A stretch of DNA of 24,484 bases from a virus (Duplodnaviria > Caudoviricetes). Below the pieces are notes generated by a model that searched no databases, was not told the DNA's origin, and worked only from the letters and a program-made list of their open reading frames with translations. Below are positions 675 through 16,338 of the stretch, one piece after another. The stretch spans positions 1 through 24,484 of the IMG/VR virus record IMGVR_UViG_3300010293_000036; one strand, 5' to 3'. A program made the position numbers and the translations under genes. Each line of letters starts with the position of its first letter. The stretch's first letter is position 1.

Positions 675-921
675 TCAGCACCTCGTCCAGTTTGGTGGCG
701 TACCAGATGGCCTTGCGGTTGTCCTCGACCGAGTCAGCCTTCTTGCCCAGGCGCCACTGGTACTTGATGACCTGGCCACGCAGGAAACCGATGAACTGCT
801 CCCGGCCCAGGGCGGCACGGATGGCGTCGATGCACTCAACCCCGTTGTCGGTCTCGGCGTAGTGGGGCGGGTGGTTGACCATGTCCTTCTTAGGGTCGGT
901 CTTAGTGGTCTTGCGTTGCAT
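658..921 (-). CDS. DUF3310 protein (T7 gp1.7-like nucleotide kinase family), 87 aa
   Basis: Signature DMVNHPPHY...VECIDAI...GFLRGQVIKYQWRLGKK...EDNRKAIWY. AAGGAG SD before ATG 921; the ORF-track start at 1017 lies deep inside thyX. Confidence 0.85.
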   Translation of the reverse strand: MQRKTTKTDPKKDMVNHPPHYAETDNGVECIDAIRAALGREQFIGFLRGQVIKYQWRLGKKADSVEDNRKAIWYATKLDEVLNELEA

Positions 922-1570
922 CGAGAATCTCCTTGAGTGAGGGCATGACATGGAGCAGAGCGAGGCGGCACATGACCGCAAGCTCACGATGCTCCTTCTG
1001 GGTACCGTTGCCGGCACGGAGTTGGATGTAGTGAATCCAACTGCGGATCGAACCTGCCATGTACAACCGGCTGACGGTCAGGCCCTCAGGCAAGACCGCC
1101 CTGGCCACCTCCTTCGCGATACCTTGCTCCAAGGCCCACTGGTAGGTCTGGCGGGTCAGCTCAGCTGTTCGGCTTTGCAGCGTGCACCACTGGCGTTGCA
1201 ACTCAGCATCATCGGTCTCAGTGCTGTTCTGGCGGTTCTTGGTGTCTTGCAGACGGGCTTCGCGGAGCATCACATCGTCGGTGACCTCGGCGTACCGCTG
1301 GCTGAACTCTTGGAACGAGAACGAGCGGTGGCGCAGAATCTGCCGGGCGATGTCGCGGGTTGTCTGGATCTCCATGACGGCGTGGGCCATCTCGAACGGC
1401 GACCAGTGGTGGTTGCGAGTCAGGTAGTTCAGCAGACGAGGGGCCGTCTCGTGGTTGGCTTGGTTGCTCGGGTTCGAGACCCGAGCGCAGTAGGCCACCA
1501 GCTCCTCGCCCGTCTGAACGCCATCAAGCTCGATGGGCTGCGTGAAAGCGATCAGACGGACTTGGCTCAT
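902..1570 (-). CDS. thyX: FAD-dependent thymidylate synthase
   Basis: ThyX motif RHRSFSFQEFSQRY (RHRx7-8S), plus HWSPFE, ARVS, KEVARAVLP and R...TQKEHR. Confidence 0.96.
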   Translation of the reverse strand: MSQVRLIAFTQPIELDGVQTGEELVAYCARVSNPSNQANHETAPRLLNYLTRNHHWSPFEMAHAVMEIQTTRDIARQILRHRSFSFQEFSQRYAEVTDDVMLREARLQDTKNRQNSTETDDAELQRQWCTLQSRTAELTRQTYQWALEQGIAKEVARAVLPEGLTVSRLYMAGSIRSWIHYIQLRAGNGTQKEHRELAVMCRLALLHVMPSLKEILDATQDH

Positions 1571-1806: not shown

Positions 1807-1843
1807 AAAAGAAAGGTGCCTAGGAACTGAACTCCTGGCACCC
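1807..1843 (-). terminator. Rho-independent terminator after the 63-aa gene
   Basis: Minus strand reads GGTGCC-AGGA-gttcagt-TCCT-a-GGCACC followed by TTTCTTTT. Confidence 0.8.
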
Positions 1844-1858
1844 TTGCGGCTGTGAAGC

Positions 1859-2050
1859 TTAGGCAGCTTCCTTGATACCGGCGACGATGCCCTTGATGAC
1901 TTCCTTCGCAGCCTTCGCAGCGGCCTTGTCCTCGGGCAGCTCGGCTTCCTTGATCACGGTCAGGACACGCTTGGTCTCGGCCTTCACGGCCTTGGTGACT
2001 TCCTTCTCGACCAGGGCGGCGACTTTCTCGTCTTGCAGCAATTTGCTCAT
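1859..2050 (-). CDS. Small Ala/Lys/Glu-rich helical protein, 63 aa (MSKLLQDEKVAALVEKEVTK...)
   Basis: GGAG SD 6 nt before ATG 2050. Strongly biased codons (AAG, GCC, ATC). Flanked by its own promoter and terminator. Confidence 0.85.
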   Translation of the reverse strand: MSKLLQDEKVAALVEKEVTKAVKAETKRVLTVIKEAELPEDKAAAKAAKEVIKGIVAGIKEAA

Positions 2051-2104
2051 GATGAACTCCAATTGGTTGATGATAGCCTTGGGAAGATCCCCTCAGCAGT
2101 TGCG

Positions 2105-2133
2105 ATTCTAATCTGCGCCAGCACGGCTGTAAA
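2105..2133 (-). promoter_or_regulatory. Sigma70-like leftward promoter P1
   Basis: TTTACA-17 nt-TAGAAT in the gap after the primase-helicase stop. Confidence 0.8.
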
Positions 2134-2142
2134 CATGTGGTT

Positions 2143-4242
2143 TCAATATTTTGCGGCTTTTTGCCCGCTTTGCTTCTTGTCCCACTTGTTCAGGTGCTCG
2201 ATCACAAGGGGCCCAACAGCCGTGAGCCAGTGGTCCACGTTCCGCACCGCGTAGAACCGGCCCTGAGACCCATCGGCCAAGCGCACCGGCTTCCCGTTGC
2301 AGACCTGCCTGACCCCGGCCCGCGCCAGCTCGCGACCCAGCCCGTTGGCTGTGGTGCCGGTCCGCCCAGTTGGGTCGTAGAACTGCAGCAGCTCCTTGCT
2401 GGTGAACAAGTCCTTGTCGATGACCAGCTCCCCGACCCGCAGCACGTGGTCCGGGGTCGCCAGGAGCATGCGCACCCAACCGGCTAGGTCCGATTGCACG
2501 TTGGCGATCATCCGCTCCTTGGCTGCCGTCTTGAAGGCCGGGGCTGCCGGGTTGAAGTCGCCCAGGTCCAGGTTCAGCAGGTAGTCGAACACCGCAGCCG
2601 AGCCGCCCGTGTCCAGCCACAAGTCGTACTCCATGTAGAACGCCTCGTCCATGGGGCCGACTTGCACCTCGTGGATGAAGAAGCGCCGGTCGTCGTCTTC
2701 CAAGAAGAACGAATCCGGGTGATTGGCGGTGAAGAAGTAGTTGATGCAGTCCGGCACCGTGTAGGTAGGCACGTACTTGCCGTTGACGCGGAGCTCCCGC
2801 TGCGTGATGAGCTTCTTGAGGAAGTCGGCATCCTGCCGCTTGTTCGAGCCGGTCACGTCGTCGCCCATGACGAACTGCTTGCCCTCGGCCCACTCGTTGA
2901 AGGCGCCGTGCAGATCCATCTGGCTAATCTCGGTGAAGTTCTTCCCGTAGATCCGGGCCAGCGTGTAGCCCAGCAGTGACTTACCTGTACCGTGGCGGAT
3001 GCCGTGGATGACGACCGAGCTGAACAACTTGACACCCGGGTGCTGCAAGGGGTAAGCGCACCAGCGCAGGAACCACTGCTTGGCCTCAGGTTCGGCGTTC
3101 GTGAAGATGTGGTCGACAAGCTGCAGGAACAGACTGACGTCGTCCTCAACCGGTTCGACACCCCAGCCCGGCCAGATGTTGAACATAGGCCTCGGCTCCG
3201 TGATGAAGCGCTCAGACCCAGGCTGGTAGGTGAGCTTCGTGACCTCCGTGCGCAAGGGCCAGCGCAACCAAGCGGCAGCTGCCGAGACCGCCTTAAAGCT
3301 GACCGCGCCATCCTGCTTGAGGTTTCGCTCATGGTAGTTGAGAGGCGCCTGCAGGTGCTCCTTGAAGGCAGATGGTGAAGCCTTGAACCGGGTGTCTTGA
3401 TCGACGATGAGACCCGGGTCTTGCACGTAGACGTACTTGTCGTTCAGCGACCACAGCGGAGCCGTCAGCCCCAGGGGCTCAGCCTCCGTGAGCAAGCCGC
3501 GGAACATCGTGACGGCTGAGGGTCCGGCGTGGACGAGGAAGTCATCAAGCCCTACCTTCTCAAGGCCTGGTAGCTGCGGCAGCGAGACCAGATGCACGAA
3601 GCACCCGCGCCGATGCAACTCCTCAGCCAGTTCACGCAAAGCCGCGCAGACCATGGGGTTGGTCTTGTAGTCCGAGTCGAAGCAGATGTAAACGTTACGC
3701 TTGAGCCACCGCACGAGGTCGAGGCTGGGGAGCCAATCGACGCCGAGTTTGTGGCTGCGCCAGTTGTACACGCCACCCAGCCCGATGGTGGGGAAGCCTT
3801 CCTTGCAGGCCTTGGCGGCTTTGAGTTCGCCCTCAGTGAGGATCAAGGGTTGGTCGGTGTCGCCAAGCAGACCAGACCAGTCTTGGTTGGCTGGGTAGTA
3901 GGCGACGGGCGCCGTGTTGGGTTCTTGCACGTACCTGACTGGCTTCTTCTCAGTCATCGATGAGAAGTCAGTTGCGGTCTCGAGGTACCTGAGGCGGTAG
4001 AAGGGCTTGCTGCCCGGCCAGTCGCTGAGGGGTTTGCCGTCAGGGTCTAGGTAATCGATGCGGAGACTACAAAGCTGCTTGAATGCTTGGTGCTGAGCCG
4101 CCGTCTGCTGGGCTCCTAAGCAGTGCATACTAAGCAGCTTGGCGTCGTCGAGCGTGAGCCCGCTTGATTTGAGCTTGGCTTCGCCTAGGGCGAGCGCTTT
4201 GTGGTCGGCGGCTGGTGCCGTCTTCTTTCTTGTGGTTGCCAT
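2143..4242 (-). CDS. Primase-helicase: N-terminal Toprim-like domain (DUF3854-like) and C-terminal SF3 helicase (NrS-1/DUF5906-like), 699 aa
   Basis: Toprim motifs LILTEGELKA, TIGLGGVYNW, VYICFDSD, KVGLDDF. Walker A GIRHGTGKS, Walker B FVMGDD, then FTANH and DDRRF. GAGGA SD. Confidence 0.9.
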   Translation of the reverse strand: MATTRKKTAPAADHKALALGEAKLKSSGLTLDDAKLLSMHCLGAQQTAAQHQAFKQLCSLRIDYLDPDGKPLSDWPGSKPFYRLRYLETATDFSSMTEKKPVRYVQEPNTAPVAYYPANQDWSGLLGDTDQPLILTEGELKAAKACKEGFPTIGLGGVYNWRSHKLGVDWLPSLDLVRWLKRNVYICFDSDYKTNPMVCAALRELAEELHRRGCFVHLVSLPQLPGLEKVGLDDFLVHAGPSAVTMFRGLLTEAEPLGLTAPLWSLNDKYVYVQDPGLIVDQDTRFKASPSAFKEHLQAPLNYHERNLKQDGAVSFKAVSAAAAWLRWPLRTEVTKLTYQPGSERFITEPRPMFNIWPGWGVEPVEDDVSLFLQLVDHIFTNAEPEAKQWFLRWCAYPLQHPGVKLFSSVVIHGIRHGTGKSLLGYTLARIYGKNFTEISQMDLHGAFNEWAEGKQFVMGDDVTGSNKRQDADFLKKLITQRELRVNGKYVPTYTVPDCINYFFTANHPDSFFLEDDDRRFFIHEVQVGPMDEAFYMEYDLWLDTGGSAAVFDYLLNLDLGDFNPAAPAFKTAAKERMIANVQSDLAGWVRMLLATPDHVLRVGELVIDKDLFTSKELLQFYDPTGRTGTTANGLGRELARAGVRQVCNGKPVRLADGSQGRFYAVRNVDHWLTAVGPLVIEHLNKWDKKQSGQKAAKY

Positions 4243-4404
4243 TGTGTTTCGGTCCTCAATTCGTCGATCATAGCCGCCTCAGCATCGGCCTACCATGCGC
4301 TCAGCCGCATGAAAAGGTGGCCACCCCGACCATGAACCTTGCTGAGGGGATCGACGCGGACCATGGTTTAACAACCGAAGGAGACGTCACGACCGGGGCG
4401 GCCA
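4243..4404 (-). ncRNA. Putative structured 5' leader (cis-regulatory RNA) of the primase-helicase mRNA
   Basis: Nested inverted repeats 4358-4362/4251-4255, 4349-4356/4262-4269, 4340-4347/4277-4284 and apical hairpin 4294-4299/4306-4311. The outer stem covers part of the SD. Confidence 0.6.
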
Positions 4405-4410
4405 AGACAA

Positions 4411-4439
4411 ATTCTAGTTCGATTATTGCCAGACGTAAA
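4411..4439 (-). promoter_or_regulatory. Sigma70-like leftward promoter P2 (primase-helicase)
   Basis: TTTACG-17 nt-TAGAAT. Confidence 0.8.
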
Positions 4440-4446
4440 CGGTGGG

Positions 4447-4833
4447 TTATTTCTCCTGCCCGTAAGGCAACTTGATGATGTCTACCACCTCCATGGATTC
4501 TTGATCGAAGAACTGCGCACGAAGTCCTCCGGCCTTAGAGAACTTGATCTTGAGTGTTGACTCTTTGACACCTGCAAGCTTAGCTACAGCCTCCCAACCT
4601 TGAATTTGCCGAGTGGTTCCGTCCCGGTATTTGAGTTGGAATGGTTGCTCGACACGTCGCTTGGACCAGTATTCTGAAATGGTCTTCGATTGTTTGGCCC
4701 GCTGCTCCTCGTCCCAACGAGGCTTTGGGACTTGTAATTTGACCAGTTCGAGCAGTTCTTGTGGCGCTTGGCGCTTGGCGCTTGGAAGCGCATCCACCAA
4801 GTGTTGGAGCAAATTGATAAGTTCTGGGGCCAT
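4447..4833 (-). CDS. Putative DNA-binding protein, 128 aa (NUMOD3-like segment plus HTH-like segment)
   Basis: CAGGAG SD before ATG 4833. WDEEQRAKQSKTISEYW resembles a NUMOD3 repeat; GWEAVAKLAGVKESTLKIKF resembles an HTH. No nuclease motif seen. The function is tentative. Confidence 0.6.
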   Translation of the reverse strand: MAPELINLLQHLVDALPSAKRQAPQELLELVKLQVPKPRWDEEQRAKQSKTISEYWSKRRVEQPFQLKYRDGTTRQIQGWEAVAKLAGVKESTLKIKFSKAGGLRAQFFDQESMEVVDIIKLPYGQEK

Positions 4834-4857: not shown

Positions 4858-4886
4858 ATCATATTCTATATTGAATGACCTGTAAA
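4858..4886 (-). promoter_or_regulatory. Sigma70-like leftward promoter P3
   Basis: TTTACA-17 nt-TATGAT upstream of the 128-aa gene. Confidence 0.75.
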
Positions 4887-5100
4887 CTACACTACCGCTA
4901 CAGAACTACTCAGCTACGGGGCGCCCTATTCTCTACTCCTCTCTTTCTAAATATATATCTTTATTTCTTTCTTTACTTTAGAAAGATAGAAAGAGAAGAG
5001 GACTGTAGTTTATGTAGTTTCTGAAAAACTCCTTACAGATTAACAACTTACGCTACTACAGAACTCGCTACACAGGCCGTGGCCCCGCCGCGGTGTAGTG
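4886..5100. repeat. AT-rich region with clustered CTAC/GTAG repeats; candidate replication origin or packaging site
   Basis: Nine CTAC and three GTAG copies. CTACAGAACT direct repeat at 4898-4907 and 5056-5065. Pyrimidine tract then purine tract (4929-5002) with inverted symmetry. IHF-like GATTAACAACTTA at 5038-5050. Confidence 0.65.
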
Positions 5101-6937: not shown

Positions 6938-9016
6938 ATGGCCCGAATGTCAAAAGCCGAGCGCCACGCGCAAATCCACTATGAAGCCATGGTGGAGTTC
7001 GACAACATCCAGTCCGCCTTGCGCGACGAACGGTTGCAGTGCCTCCAAGACCGCCGCTTCTACTCGATCGCTGGTGCCCAGTGGGAAGGTCCGCTGGCCA
7101 AGCAGTTCGAGAACAAGCCGAAGTTCGAGGTTAACAAGATTCACCTGTCGGTCATTCGCATCATCAACGAGTACCGCAACAACCGCATCACCGTCGACTT
7201 TGTGAGCAAGGAAGGCGCAGAGTACGACAAGCTGGCCGACACCTGCGACGACCTGTACCGCGCCGATGAACAAGACAGCGTGGCCGATGAGGCCTATGAC
7301 AACGCCTTTGAGGAGGCCGTGGCTGGCGGCATCGGGGCTTGGCGCCTGCGGACTGAGTACGAGAACGACGAGGATCCAGAAGACGAGCGCCAGCGCATCC
7401 GCATCGAGCCGATCTTCGACGCCGACAGCTCGGTGTTCTTTGACCTGAACGCCAAGCGGCAAGACAAGTCCGATGCCAAGCGCTGCTTCGTGCTGACCGC
7501 CATGACCCGCGATGCTTACGCCGAGGAGTGGGGCGACGACCCGGCCAGCTGGCCCAAGGAAGTGCACCAATGGGAGTTTGACTGGCTCACACCTGACGTT
7601 GTCTTCGTGGCCGAGTACTACCGCGTCGAGGAGACCCGTGAAACTGTGCAAGTGTGGCAAGATTTGGCTGGCGGCGAGGAGCGCTACTTCGATGGCGACT
7701 TCGAGAAGGATCCGGAGCTGCTGACTAAGCTCGAGGCTGTTGGCAGCAAGCTGGTCCGCACCAAGCAGGTCAAGCGCCGCAAGGTGCGCAAGTACATCCT
7801 GAACGGCGCCCGTGTGCTCGAGGACTGCGGCTACATCGCCGGCAAGTACATCCCCATCGTTGTGGTGTATGGCAAGCGCTGGTTCATCGACAACGTCGAG
7901 CGCTGCATGGGTCACGTGCGCCTAGCCAAGGATGCTCAACGCCTGGCCAACATGCAACGGTCCAAGCTTGGCGAGATCAGCGCCTTGTCCTCGGTGCAGA
8001 AGCCGATCCTGACTCCTGAGCAGATCGCGGGCCACCAAGTCATGTGGTCTGAGGACAACATCAAGAACTACCCCTACCTGCTGATCAACCCGATCACTGA
8101 CATGAACGGCAACCAGACTCTTGCCGGTCCTGCCGCCTACACCAAGTCGCCTGACGTGCCTCCGGCCATGGCGGCTTTGCTGCAGATCACTGAGCAGGAC
8201 ATGCAAGACCTGTTGGGCAACCAGCAAGCGGCTGAGAAGCTCGAATCTAACATCTCGGGCAAGGCAGTTGAGCTGATCCAGAACAAGCTCGACATGCAGG
8301 CCTTCATCTACATGAGCAACTTCGCCAAGGGCGTCCAGCACTGCGGTGAAATCTGGCTCAGCATGGCCAAAGAGGTCTACGTCGAGGAAGGTCGCAAGAT
8401 GAAGGGCATCGGCGAGCAGGGCGAGATGAGCCAAGTCGAGCTGGTCAAGCCCATGATCGGCGAAGAAGGCGAGGTCGAAGTTGAGAACGACCTGTCTGAG
8501 GCTGAGTTCGACGTGGCTGTGCAGGTTGGCCCGTCCAGCTCCAGCAAGCGCGCCGCCACCGTCCGCGCCCTGACCGGCATGATGCAGATCACGCAGGATC
8601 CTGAGACGCTGCAGGTGCTGTCGGCCATGGCCATGATGAACATGGAAGGCGAGGGCATCACCGAGGTGCGTGACTACTTCCGCAAGAAGCTGCTGCGCCT
8701 GGGTGTCGTCGAACCGACTGATGAGGAGAAGCAAACCCTCATTCAGGAAGCTCAGAACGCCAAACCTGACGCCCAGACTCTGTACCTGCAGGCTGCGGCC
8801 CAGGAGGCTGAGGCCAACGCCCAACGTTCGCGTGCCGACACCGTGCTCACGGTCGCTAAGGCCGAGGAGACCAAGGCCAAGACCCTCAAGACCGTGTCTG
8901 AGGTCGACGCCATGGACCAGAAGCAGGCGCTGGAGGTCATTGACCGATTCGGCGTGGCACCGCAGCCAAGTCCAGAAGTTTCTGTGGTGGCGGTCGAACC
9001 GCCTCCGCAAGTATAA
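6938..9016 (+). CDS. P22-like portal protein, 692 aa
   Basis: Position after terL. Motifs GAQW, NKIH..V.RII, VFFD..AK..DKSDA..CF, YIPIVVVYGKRW.ID..E...GHVRLAKDAQRL.N, and a C-terminal helical barrel-like region. Confidence 0.93.
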   Translation: MARMSKAERHAQIHYEAMVEFDNIQSALRDERLQCLQDRRFYSIAGAQWEGPLAKQFENKPKFEVNKIHLSVIRIINEYRNNRITVDFVSKEGAEYDKLADTCDDLYRADEQDSVADEAYDNAFEEAVAGGIGAWRLRTEYENDEDPEDERQRIRIEPIFDADSSVFFDLNAKRQDKSDAKRCFVLTAMTRDAYAEEWGDDPASWPKEVHQWEFDWLTPDVVFVAEYYRVEETRETVQVWQDLAGGEERYFDGDFEKDPELLTKLEAVGSKLVRTKQVKRRKVRKYILNGARVLEDCGYIAGKYIPIVVVYGKRWFIDNVERCMGHVRLAKDAQRLANMQRSKLGEISALSSVQKPILTPEQIAGHQVMWSEDNIKNYPYLLINPITDMNGNQTLAGPAAYTKSPDVPPAMAALLQITEQDMQDLLGNQQAAEKLESNISGKAVELIQNKLDMQAFIYMSNFAKGVQHCGEIWLSMAKEVYVEEGRKMKGIGEQGEMSQVELVKPMIGEEGEVEVENDLSEAEFDVAVQVGPSSSSKRAATVRALTGMMQITQDPETLQVLSAMAMMNMEGEGITEVRDYFRKKLLRLGVVEPTDEEKQTLIQEAQNAKPDAQTLYLQAAAQEAEANAQRSRADTVLTVAKAEETKAKTLKTVSEVDAMDQKQALEVIDRFGVAPQPSPEVSVVAVEPPPQV

Positions 9017-11514: not shown

Positions 11515-11927
11515 GTTTTCCATCACTCGTCTACCGTTGCCCTGGTCCACACCGGAAGCCAGGTCAAGGCACCTACGCCTACGCCCAGGTCAAGACTCAG
11601 GAAGAACTCGACGCCAAGCTTGCGTCTGGTTGGTTTGCCACCTTCGACGAGGCCAAAGAGGCCGCAGGCGAGGTTGCTCCGAGCAAGAAACCATCGAAAA
11701 AGTCTGGACGCCGCCTTAAACCGTCGCGCCCGCTTGATGGCGTGAACCGCCGACTGCTGCCCAAACCCACCGAGCAGACTCAAGAAGCCGTGGAAGAGGC
11801 CAAGGACGACCAACCTGCGACCCGCGATGAGCTTGAAGCCAAGGCCACTGAGCTCGGCATCGCGTTTACTGACAAGACAACTGACGCCAAACTGCTGAAG
11901 TTGATCACCAAACACCTGGAGAGCTGA
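11511..11927 (+). CDS. Hypothetical protein with a C-terminal HeH/LEM-like helical domain, 138 aa
   Basis: TRDELEAKATELGIAF...DAKLLKLI tail; position between coat and the gp4-like gene. Confidence 0.7.
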   Translation: MSFPSLVYRCPGPHRKPGQGTYAYAQVKTQEELDAKLASGWFATFDEAKEAAGEVAPSKKPSKKSGRRLKPSRPLDGVNRRLLPKPTEQTQEAVEEAKDDQPATRDELEAKATELGIAFTDKTTDAKLLKLITKHLES

Positions 11928-11928
11928 T

Positions 11929-12411
11929 ATGGGCTGGACTAAGCGCCAATTCGTGACGCAAGCATTTGAAGAAATCGGGCTGGCTGCTTACGTCTTCGAC
12001 CTGCAGCCTCAGCAACTTGACAGCGCCCTGCGCAAACTCGACGCTATGATGGCTTTGTGGAATGGCAAGGGCATCCGGTTGGGTTACCCGCTGCCGTCGA
12101 GTCCACAAGACAGCAACCTTGATGAGGAAACCCTGGTCCCCGACTCAGCCAACGAGGCCATTTACACCAACTTGGCCCTGCGGATTGCCGGAGGTCTTGG
12201 CAGACAGCCTCAGGACGTGACCAAAGCGGCCGCCAGGGCTGGTTACGAGGTCTTGCTCTCACGAGCTGCCATGCCGATGGAACAGCAGTTCCCTGGGACC
12301 CTTCCTGTTGGCGCAGGGAACAAACCTTGGAACAACTACGACAACCCGTTTGTCAACCCGCCTGTGGACCCGGTGCTTGCCGGCCAAGACGGTCCGATCC
12401 AATTCAACTAA
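11929..12411 (+). CDS. P22 gp4-like head-to-tail adaptor, 160 aa
   Basis: TK..FV..AF.EIG, ALRKLDAMMA.W...GI.LGY, AIYTNLALRIA, P.GAGN motifs; gene order. Confidence 0.85.
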   Translation: MGWTKRQFVTQAFEEIGLAAYVFDLQPQQLDSALRKLDAMMALWNGKGIRLGYPLPSSPQDSNLDEETLVPDSANEAIYTNLALRIAGGLGRQPQDVTKAAARAGYEVLLSRAAMPMEQQFPGTLPVGAGNKPWNNYDNPFVNPPVDPVLAGQDGPIQFN

Positions 12412-12420
12412 GGAGCTGTC

Positions 12421-12876
12421 ATGCCTCAAATCAATCAACTTCCGGTCCTCAGTCAGGTCTCGCCTGGCGACCAGATCCCTGTCTTTACGCCGAACAACGG
12501 CGACGCGCGCCGCCTGCCGATCAGCCAGCTACTGGCGTTCTTCCAGCAGTCATTCGCCAGCCCGACATTGTCGACCCAGTTCGCCACACCTGGCACTGGT
12601 TTCAACGTCGCCATCCAGACGCCTGTCAGCGAGCAGCAGTGGTTGATCATTCAGCCTGCCGGCACGCTGGCCACCGGCACAGTCACCCTGCCGCTGAACA
12701 CGCAGACGCCTGATGGCACCGAGGTGCTCATCACGACCACGCAGCAGATCACAGCCTTCACGCTGGCATTGAACGGGGCTGCTGCGGCGTTTGGCGCGCC
12801 CAGTACGTTGTCGGCCGAGGACTTCTTCCGTGTGCGCTACTACGCCAACACTAATTCTTGGTATCGGATTGCCTGA
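12421..12876 (+). CDS. Hypothetical, probably virion-associated beta-rich protein, 151 aa
   Basis: TAAGGAG SD; Thr/Gly/Ala-rich; lies within the structural operon. Confidence 0.7.
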   Translation: MPQINQLPVLSQVSPGDQIPVFTPNNGDARRLPISQLLAFFQQSFASPTLSTQFATPGTGFNVAIQTPVSEQQWLIIQPAGTLATGTVTLPLNTQTPDGTEVLITTTQQITAFTLALNGAAAAFGAPSTLSAEDFFRVRYYANTNSWYRIA

Positions 12877-16216: not shown

Positions 16217-16219
16217 GTA

Positions 16220-16248
16220 TTTACAACTAGGCGGATTCGTAGTAGGAT
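16220..16248 (+). promoter_or_regulatory. Sigma70-like internal rightward promoter P5
   Basis: TTTACA-17 nt-TAGGAT in the largest gap (~120 nt) of the structural arm. Confidence 0.75.
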
Positions 16249-16257
16249 CCATCCTAG

Positions 16258-16276
16258 TTGTGAACCAGATTCACAA
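16258..16276. promoter_or_regulatory. Operator-like palindrome, copy 2 (TTGTGAA-ccaga-TTCACAA)
   Basis: Perfect 7-bp inverted repeat just downstream of the P5 -10 box. Confidence 0.7.
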
Positions 16277-16338
16277 CAGCTGAGCCGATCGATCGAGCAG
16301 CCAGCAGCTCACAACCGCCCTGAACAAGGAGAATGTGG

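Follow-up and report, generated by a model that had tools for sequence, protein, structure and literature searches.

The window analysed here, the whole stretch of 24,484 nucleotides (nt) of the IMG/VR virus record IMGVR_UViG_3300010293_000036, carries P22-type portal, capsid, adaptor and ejection genes on its plus strand and a replication module on its minus strand, as found in a PHROGs scan. The complete genome of the same phage (G001, 38,459 bp, primase 100% identical) encodes a ligase, DNA polymerase A, a helicase, nucleases and nucleotide enzymes. The element studied lies at the front of the leader of the primase-helicase gene: a predicted structured RNA of about 88 nt, with a loop (the seed) complementary to short sequences, here called tags, that stand behind early promoters of this phage and its relatives (Table 1). 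A sequence-only reading of the window had pointed to a 13-nt match at this locus. Positions 2086-2098 are indeed the exact reverse complement of 4340-4352, no extension being possible on either side, and both 13-mers sit in the gaps flanking the primase open reading frame (ORF). Matches of this length are not rare in themselves (seven exact inverted ones of at least 13 nt occur in the window); for these two gaps the match is beyond chance, none of 3000 shuffles of the downstream gap having reached 13 nt and the best, 12 nt, having occurred once.

Only an 8-9-nt core of the 13-mer is conserved, and the extension to 13 nt is private to this phage. Among 41 distinct relatives with a site downstream of the primase, extra Watson-Crick pairs beyond the core number none in 11, one in 16, two in 8, three in 3, four in 2 and five in 1, which is this phage. 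A longer exact match, of 17 nt, is located at another early promoter (G001 8226). The 13-nt pair belongs to a larger system, of whose contacts it is one that can be seen.

The seed loop is closed by a stem of 4-6 base pairs in 47 of 69 distinct leaders and by two contiguous pairs in this phage. Stem P1, which closes the whole domain, starts 6-8 nt past the -10 box in 56 of 62 leaders; behind it stands an NCC tail in 52 of 62, followed by pyrimidines, and the U-rich linker met at this point is a putative cleavage or termination point. Under a strict pattern, 14 of the 16 genomes in the promoter-survey set have the same sigma70-like promoter ahead of the RNA. Stability alone provides no evidence, since the minimum free energy (MFE) of the leader was no better than that of shuffled sequences (z -0.5); nor was the transcript of the downstream promoter P1 unusually structured (z +1.2). 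Rfam returned nothing for the leader (4230-4420) at E<=10 and nothing at the gathering score for 16 relatives, and the whole-Rfam scan gave chance matches only (E 3.8-7.7), all outside the element. A second seed, UCUCCUUC, which resembles an anti-Shine-Dalgarno sequence and could pair with the downstream Shine-Dalgarno (SD), was considered and dropped, as it is not conserved in distant leaders.

Table 1. Features of the primase locus, in positions of the window
Feature	Position	Strand	Basis or remark
sigma70-like promoter of the RNA/primase transcript	4411..4439	-	-35 TTTACG, 17 nt, -10 TAGAAT
~88-nt RNA, three-way junction	4316..4403	-	predicted fold and covariation
Closing stem P1, 17 bp	4403-4387 with 4335-4319	-	domain folded alone; then variable arm, seed hairpin
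P2 5' arm: anti-SD GGUCC, GUCGAUC and seed	4340..4362	-	MFE of full leader; own-arm pairing test
Seed loop CCUCAGCAA, core of 13-mer 4340-4352	4339..4347	-	invariant alignment columns
3' ACC tail of the RNA	4318-4316	-	
U-rich single-stranded linker after ACC	4312..4315	-	conserved pyrimidine run
Hairpin, loop GCUGAG = cis site 1 (4305-4300)	4294..4311	-	double-sided changes in 6/6 pairs
Cis site 2 UGCUGAGG, start of P2 3' arm	4277..4284	-	leader comparison
Primase SD GAGGA (4257-4253) and AUG (4242-4240)	4240..4259	-	buried in P2 state
Primase-helicase, 699 aa	2143..4242	-	DUF3854 and DUF5906; PHROG 1156 'DNA primase'; 59.6% identical to AXL3 gp64
sigma70-like early promoter P1	2105..2133	-	10 nt past primase stop
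Trans target UGCUGAGGG	2090..2098	-	about +1 of promoter-P1 transcript, then GGGA/UCCC hairpin
63-aa ORF on promoter-P1 transcript	1859..2050	-	no PHROG, Pfam or Atlas match
Terminator-like hairpin and U-run, end of promoter-P1 transcript	1807..1845	-	read from sequence; terminator scan did not flag it

We examined 97 primase loci, made up of 54 loci, 3 annotated records and a further 29 of 80 and 11 of 12 from successive searches, those left out being repeats of earlier contigs, near copies or fragments. The heptamer CCUCAGC lies within a domain closed by at least 8 pairs in 80 of the 97 (69 distinct) and not in the other 17. The 69 distinct leaders with a seed loop reach down to about 48% primase identity and include those of the lytic phages AXL3 and PW916. 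By primase and DNA polymerase, Stenotrophomonas phage AXL3 and Pseudoxanthomonas phage PW916 are the only nearest cultured relatives and, with MW202621, the only close cultured or deposited ones found in searches with these two proteins; blastn of the leader against cultured phages gave nothing beyond short chance matches.

In a plain MAFFT alignment of 42 leaders, all 15 pairs of stem P1 and of the downstream hairpin show double-sided changes, and 89.1% of cells are paired as compared with 67.6% upon shuffling, none of 500 shuffles being as high; kinship inflates this shuffle control, and in slid controls 29-46% of cells are paired. For 19 distant leaders aligned to the model the proportion was 95.1%, a figure fitted to the model. 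A model built from 37 leaders produced 20 matches in 49 further sources, all of them with CCUCAGC. When viral sequences were scanned with a pattern of the element, 41 of 42 matches preceded this primase or a small ORF inserted before it; 37 of the 42 are contigs already in the primase set, and four of the five new ones precede the primase. The same holds in metagenomes for all 20 credible matches out of 47, the primase or the inserted ORF following each time. The other 27 metagenome matches and the one remaining viral match, which lack stem P1, site 2 and the primase, were rejected as chance. We regard the predicted RNA as a real, conserved and apparently undescribed family of probable phage riboregulators.

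The sequence-only reading had placed 4340-4352 in the 5' arm of a helix that closes over the primase SD; folding predicts such a helix with this segment in its 5' arm, and the helix covaries. In the predicted fold the helix, P2, is an alternative one in which the seed pairs with cis site 2 and then zips over the SD, so that folding models predict a bistable leader: in the P1 state the RNA would be folded and the primase SD open, and in the P2 state the SD would be buried. The loop of cis site 1 reads GCUGAG in 51 of 67 leaders and GCUGGG in 7; cis site 2 reads GCUGAGG in 56 of 67 and has A-to-G wobble variants in 5 (L201, with the seed in a probable coding stretch, and L197, which is atypical, were removed before these counts). 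Five leaders with no cis site 2 in range (L209, L224, L196, L179 and L199) were left out of the fold-energy and cis-arm tests, and a further 5 of 62 for which no start was found were left out of the former, giving 57. In these, the median of G(P2)-G(P1) is -1.5 kcal/mol (range -22.8 to +13.2), and opening of the ribosome binding site (RBS) takes a median of 10.6 kcal/mol in P2 versus 4.7 in P1, P2 being costlier by more than 1 kcal/mol in 52 of the 57. The corresponding values for this phage are -63.9 (P1) versus -66.9 (P2) for the fold and 5.0 (P1) versus 9.0 kcal/mol (P2) for RBS opening. When site 2 is blocked in silico, the RBS stays cheap to open (median 4.0 kcal/mol). Compared without the conserved core, flanks from 33 dereplicated leaders reach -20.3 kcal/mol with the downstream arm of the same leader versus -14.3 with the arms of others (z -9.9, 0 of 20000 permutations); yet the own arm ranks first in only 9 of the 33.

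Small HNH-like ORFs are inserted between the RNA and the primase in L004 (2578-2997), L008 (2514-2994; Pfam E 0.004), L016, L024, L038 and L132. The element then precedes the inserted ORF, and its anti-SD arm fits the SD of the inserted gene. A shorter RNA variant, of about 74 nt, is found in L004, L008, L016 and L038.

The complement of the seed, GCUGAGG, occurs as a tag no more than 75 nt past 47 of 66 promoter-like sites in 16 genomes, against a background of 4.8% (979 of 20400 random windows). By strand, 46 of 49 such sites on the primase strand are tagged and 1 of 17 on the opposite one. Nine more distant RNA-bearing genomes have 19 tagged promoters out of 28, and in AXL3 tags precede 5 of 39 replication-strand genes and 0 of 26 virion-strand genes. 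The majority of tags lie across the SD of an early gene, and SDs of the GAGG type with GCU or GUU ahead amount to 50 of 120 on the primase strand and 3 of 55 on the other (19 genomes), as compared with 1 of 49 in RNA-less relatives, six RNA-bearing genomes having been dropped from this count by the promoter filter. The targets in G001 are at 1358, 8226 and 36282, the last being window position 2098; when the RNA's own antisense strand is set aside, the two best sites for the seed region in this genome are early-promoter targets. The site at 2098 is of a minority type placed at +1, which is found in 29 of the 41 relatives with a site downstream of the primase. As a minus-strand sigma70-like promoter lies at 2133-2105, position 2098 is about the +1 of the downstream transcript, and the terminator-like hairpin near 1845-1807 would give this transcript the length of about 290 nt that had been read from the sequence.

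Ahead of the tag, many early leaders have a conserved 5' hairpin of the CACGGUC...GACCG type (for instance at G001 1328-1357 and 8188-8225), possibly a stabiliser. On the virion strand, a sigma70-like promoter precedes the ejection-protein genes (window 16219-16332, plus strand); its leader of about 85 nt, conserved in G001, G006, G011, G016 and G018, has a 5' hairpin and an AGCUGAG...CAGCAGC motif, and its GCUGAG hexamer could make it a weak target, unless it is simply one more structured leader.

The placement of the tags bears on two other explanations. If the motif were a DNA element, that is, an operator or an inversion site present in both orientations, its vicinity to promoters would be expected, and the 128-aa ORF upstream of the RNA, with its weak HTH/NUMOD-like Atlas matches (below 0.9, a lead only), could be thought of in this context. 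The motif is, however, always sense and downstream (0 of 66 reversed or upstream of the promoter), its offsets of +7 to +57 follow the SD and not the promoter, and it is asymmetric and embedded in covarying RNA helices; we hold this explanation to be highly improbable. We give as little credit to the proposal that the 3' untranslated region of the primase mRNA folds back over 2.2 kb and opens the leader. A site is present within 200 nt of the primase stop in 41 of the 58 relatives with enough sequence, and no terminator was detected between the stop and the site. But the remaining 17 lack such a site and keep the leader, which disfavours the loop-back, the site always stands behind its own promoter, and identical tags are found at distant promoters.

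In the four genomes that lack the RNA (G025, G026, G028 and G030), none of 17 promoters is tagged. Their primases nest among RNA-bearing ones at about three places of a FastTree tree of 56 proteins, in which some nodes are weak, so that the loss was not one event. G028 keeps look-alike first genes and promoters, and the GCU part of the tag is absent; in G025, which has no tags, the fold is similar and the seed hairpin shrunken. Comparison of these genomes shows seed and tags to be lost together. In two other leaders, L179 and L224, the RNA is kept and the cis sites are absent, which points to a role in trans. A similar three-way fold with a shrunken seed hairpin was also seen before the primase in L177 (1450-1545), a genome without GCUGAGG tags in which the early leaders share AAACGAGG instead.

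These losses, and the tag variants, also concern the possibility that GCUGAG(G) is bound or cleaved by a protein of the phage or host, either a translational repressor or a RegB-like nuclease, the loop of the RNA only masking the cis copy. RegA and RegB of T4 are protein analogues. The invariance of the tag over deep divergence, the display of cis site 1 in a hairpin loop, as is often the case for protein sites, and the lack of flank covariation in trans would all agree with such a site. It would not account for the presentation of a perfect complement by a covarying domain, in a loop that is exposed and closed by a stem; this complement is kept where the cis sites are gone and lost together with the tags, and the commonest tag variants, A5G and C2U, are the two that retain G-U pairs. 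We consider a protein site unlikely.

Sequence comparison thus shows a covarying closing stem, downstream hairpin and anti-SD arm, an invariant seed, and sense-oriented tags that stand behind almost all early promoters and mostly lie over SDs. On this basis, on the folding models and by analogy with known systems, we propose, with a probability of roughly 0.6, that the leader gives rise to an antisense RNA by which several early operons are repressed and translation of the primase is turned on, the repression of early genes being the firmer half of the model. Transcription would start at the first G of stem P1, and part of the transcripts would be cut or stopped in the U-rich linker and trimmed to the ~88-nt RNA ending in NCC, which would build up after infection. 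Its loop would then pair with GCUGAGG tags and cover the RBSs of early genes, repressing them by standard SD occlusion. In addition, the RNA would sit on cis sites 1 and 2 of newly made primase transcripts and so block P2, much as IsrK acts on the long mRNA of its own locus.

In the sequence-only reading the RNA from promoter P1 was to open the primase leader through a dedicated 13-nt pairing. The contact is likely to be RNA-RNA, as had been thought; the pair-specific form of the idea does not agree with the conservation of the core alone, with trans flanks devoid of self-specific covariation (p=0.20, 19 genomes), or with the same tag standing behind 2-6 other early promoters per genome. The reverse direction is more likely, the leader being the regulator and the promoter-P1 transcript one of its targets. 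What survives of opening in trans is a version widened from one to several activators: the RNA would stay in the primase leader as a sensor, and tagged early mRNAs would bind the seed loop, prevent P2 and license primase translation only while early genes are being transcribed. Pairing being symmetric, the same complementarity would serve this arrangement; the full leader cofolded with each of the three targets gives -9 to -19 kcal/mol, and the short form has no canonical terminator. Most tags, however, lie over the SD of an early gene, where pairing would block ribosome entry on that very gene, and the sensor offers no role for the hairpin-loop cis site 1. The retention of RNA and seed in L179 and L224 without cis sites also argues against it, and a stem P1 that begins at +1 together with a conserved NCC end is what would be expected of a stable free RNA. 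We judge the sensor improbable.

Several observations weigh against the proposed antisense RNA. No canonical terminator is present at the 3' end of the RNA. The invariance of the seed is partly circular, the leaders having been chosen by exact CCUCAGC and the model trained on it. For two of the three targets in this phage, cofolding, which cannot model loop-loop pairing, predicts modest binding (-6.0 and -8.2 versus -14.1 kcal/mol), and the predicted effect on the RBS at +1-type targets is small (medians of 4.5 to 5.4 kcal/mol). The GAGG part of the tag is simply an SD. A variant, ACUGAGG (L037, AXL3, PW916), breaks one pair and is also found before virion genes of AXL3. Among RNA-bearing genomes, G042 has 0 of 4 promoters tagged and no pattern matches, and G044 has 0 of 1. 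The trans flanks lack strain-specific covariation, as stated, and no relative was found that combines a changed seed with matching tags, so the decisive compensatory case is missing. Contigs from RNA libraries (four runs of one study) are those of relatives; they cover early and late genes alike and are not informative on strand, ends or level. The sign of the effect on the primase, finally, is drawn from analogy.

The statement in the sequence-only reading that no described system resembles this one was too strong, as IsrK, C4 and CI share its logic; the comparisons that follow draw on the accessible portions of the cited papers. C4 of phages P1/P7 (RF01695) is a three-stem RNA processed by RNase P, in which the b' loop occludes an RBS and the a' loop gives specificity (PMC5320573, PMC12197685, PMC8198154). 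The present element is likewise predicted to be a three-stem RNA of about 80-90 nt in the 5' part of an operon, with a loop that would pair over an RBS and targets in its own operon. Unlike C4, it has no Rfam match (RF01695 was above cut-off in 0 of 5 genomes) and one invariant seed loop in place of the variable a' and b'; its variable arm covaries with the cis SD region and shows no self-specific trans pairing. Its 5' end is predicted at +1, with little or no leader, and may differ from that of C4, which is made by RNase P. C4 controls an antirepressor operon of a temperate phage; here the targets lie in 3-7 separate operons, the downstream gene is a primase-helicase, and no antirepressor or lysogeny genes were detected.

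CI of P4 derives from the leader of a replication operon, pairs with seqA and seqC and causes termination (PMC4825925, PMC3632133). Our element shares with it the predicted origin as a small RNA from a replication-operon leader and the complementarity to sites within this leader. Here the two cis sites both follow the RNA, and no seqA-like element comes before it, whereas CI has seqA upstream and seqC downstream; the output of CI is premature termination and immunity, and that predicted here is SD masking. IsrK of Gifsy-1 has a bistable long form, which is activated by the short form (PMC4825925). A short isoform and a long mRNA arise from one promoter, and the long form is bistable with a translationally silent state, as predicted here (52 of 57 leaders); by competing with the cis copy of itself, the short form of IsrK turns translation on, the same step as we propose. 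The 3' end of IsrK is a Rho-independent terminator, its target is its own mRNA, and the gene under its control is an antirepressor. The present RNA, in contrast, has no sequence or Rfam model match to it, matches to its seed extend to many early RBSs that are unlinked, and the gene that it would gate is the primase-helicase. We do not file the element as a member of C4, CI or IsrK, since it lacks a model match, the two-loop design and the lysogeny context.

The start-associated sequences (SAS) of cluster K mycobacteriophages, for which an RNA or protein partner was left open, and of which three genomes have a single copy on the complementary strand (PMC3203893), resemble the tags as asymmetric sequences over the SD of a gene subset, with bases beyond those that pair with 16S rRNA. 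They differ in sequence and in the phylum of the host, and the accessible text describes no partner RNA for them.

No description of the element was found in the literature searched; the sequence files of PMC10690425 and the supplement of PMC5737381 were outside this search, so that an earlier computational listing is possible. All but one of the tables of PMC10690425 that were at hand contained neither the seed string nor a DUF3854/DUF5906 neighbour. The motif catalogue PMC2864571 (passages and eight supplement files) was searched for c4 text only. As to lifestyle, no integrase or repressor was found among 28 ORFs compared with PHROGs and 31 with Pfam. According to the available text, AXL3 does not form stable lysogens, pseudolysogeny not being excluded (PMC7504290), and PW916 is named lytic in the title of its paper (PMC9414467); the texts of both papers, as far as accessible, do not mention promoters.

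Other features of the region were also recorded. Just upstream of the RNA, the 128-aa ORF (4447-4833, minus strand) has its own untagged promoter (4886-4858) and contains a 7-nt tandem repeat at 4762-4785; its likeness to HTH/NUMOD DNA-binding proteins in the Atlas comparison is weak (0.86, below 0.9). Between the divergent early and late regions, window 4860-5070 is AT-rich and purine/pyrimidine-skewed, with repeated CTACAG/CTACTA words, and is a candidate replication origin or packaging start. As in AXL3, both Thy1/ThyX-type and ThyA-type thymidylate synthase homologs are encoded (window 902-1570, minus strand, and G001 11780-12643), and a Pfam scan also found a methyltransferase and a dCMP deaminase, again as in AXL3; the combination hints at modified DNA.

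The characterised phage antisense RNAs C4, CI and IsrK each have a single operon of a temperate element as their target. In the present case one RNA appears to address 3-7 separate early operons plus a replication gene, in phages without detected lysogeny genes, and covariation, the statistics of the regulon and a natural control by loss come together. The case offers a testable answer to the role of SD-overlapping repeats on phage early genes, a question open for SAS as far as the accessible text goes (PMC3203893), and it is testable now, since the cultured phages AXL3 and PW916 carry the element. Under the proposed model, the RNA would be a timer that takes a phage without detected lysogeny genes from the host-takeover genes of the early phase on to the replication of its DNA. 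More tentatively, and at less than even odds, the RNA may represent a new riboregulator family, in which one RNA made from a leader would serve a lytic phage as master switch between the early phase and replication. While building up, it would silence a multi-operon early regulon through a shared SD-overlapping tag and simultaneously unlock translation of the primase-helicase from its own transcript, as a protein-free timer that would have moved, along with one replication module, between genomes of podovirus and siphovirus type.

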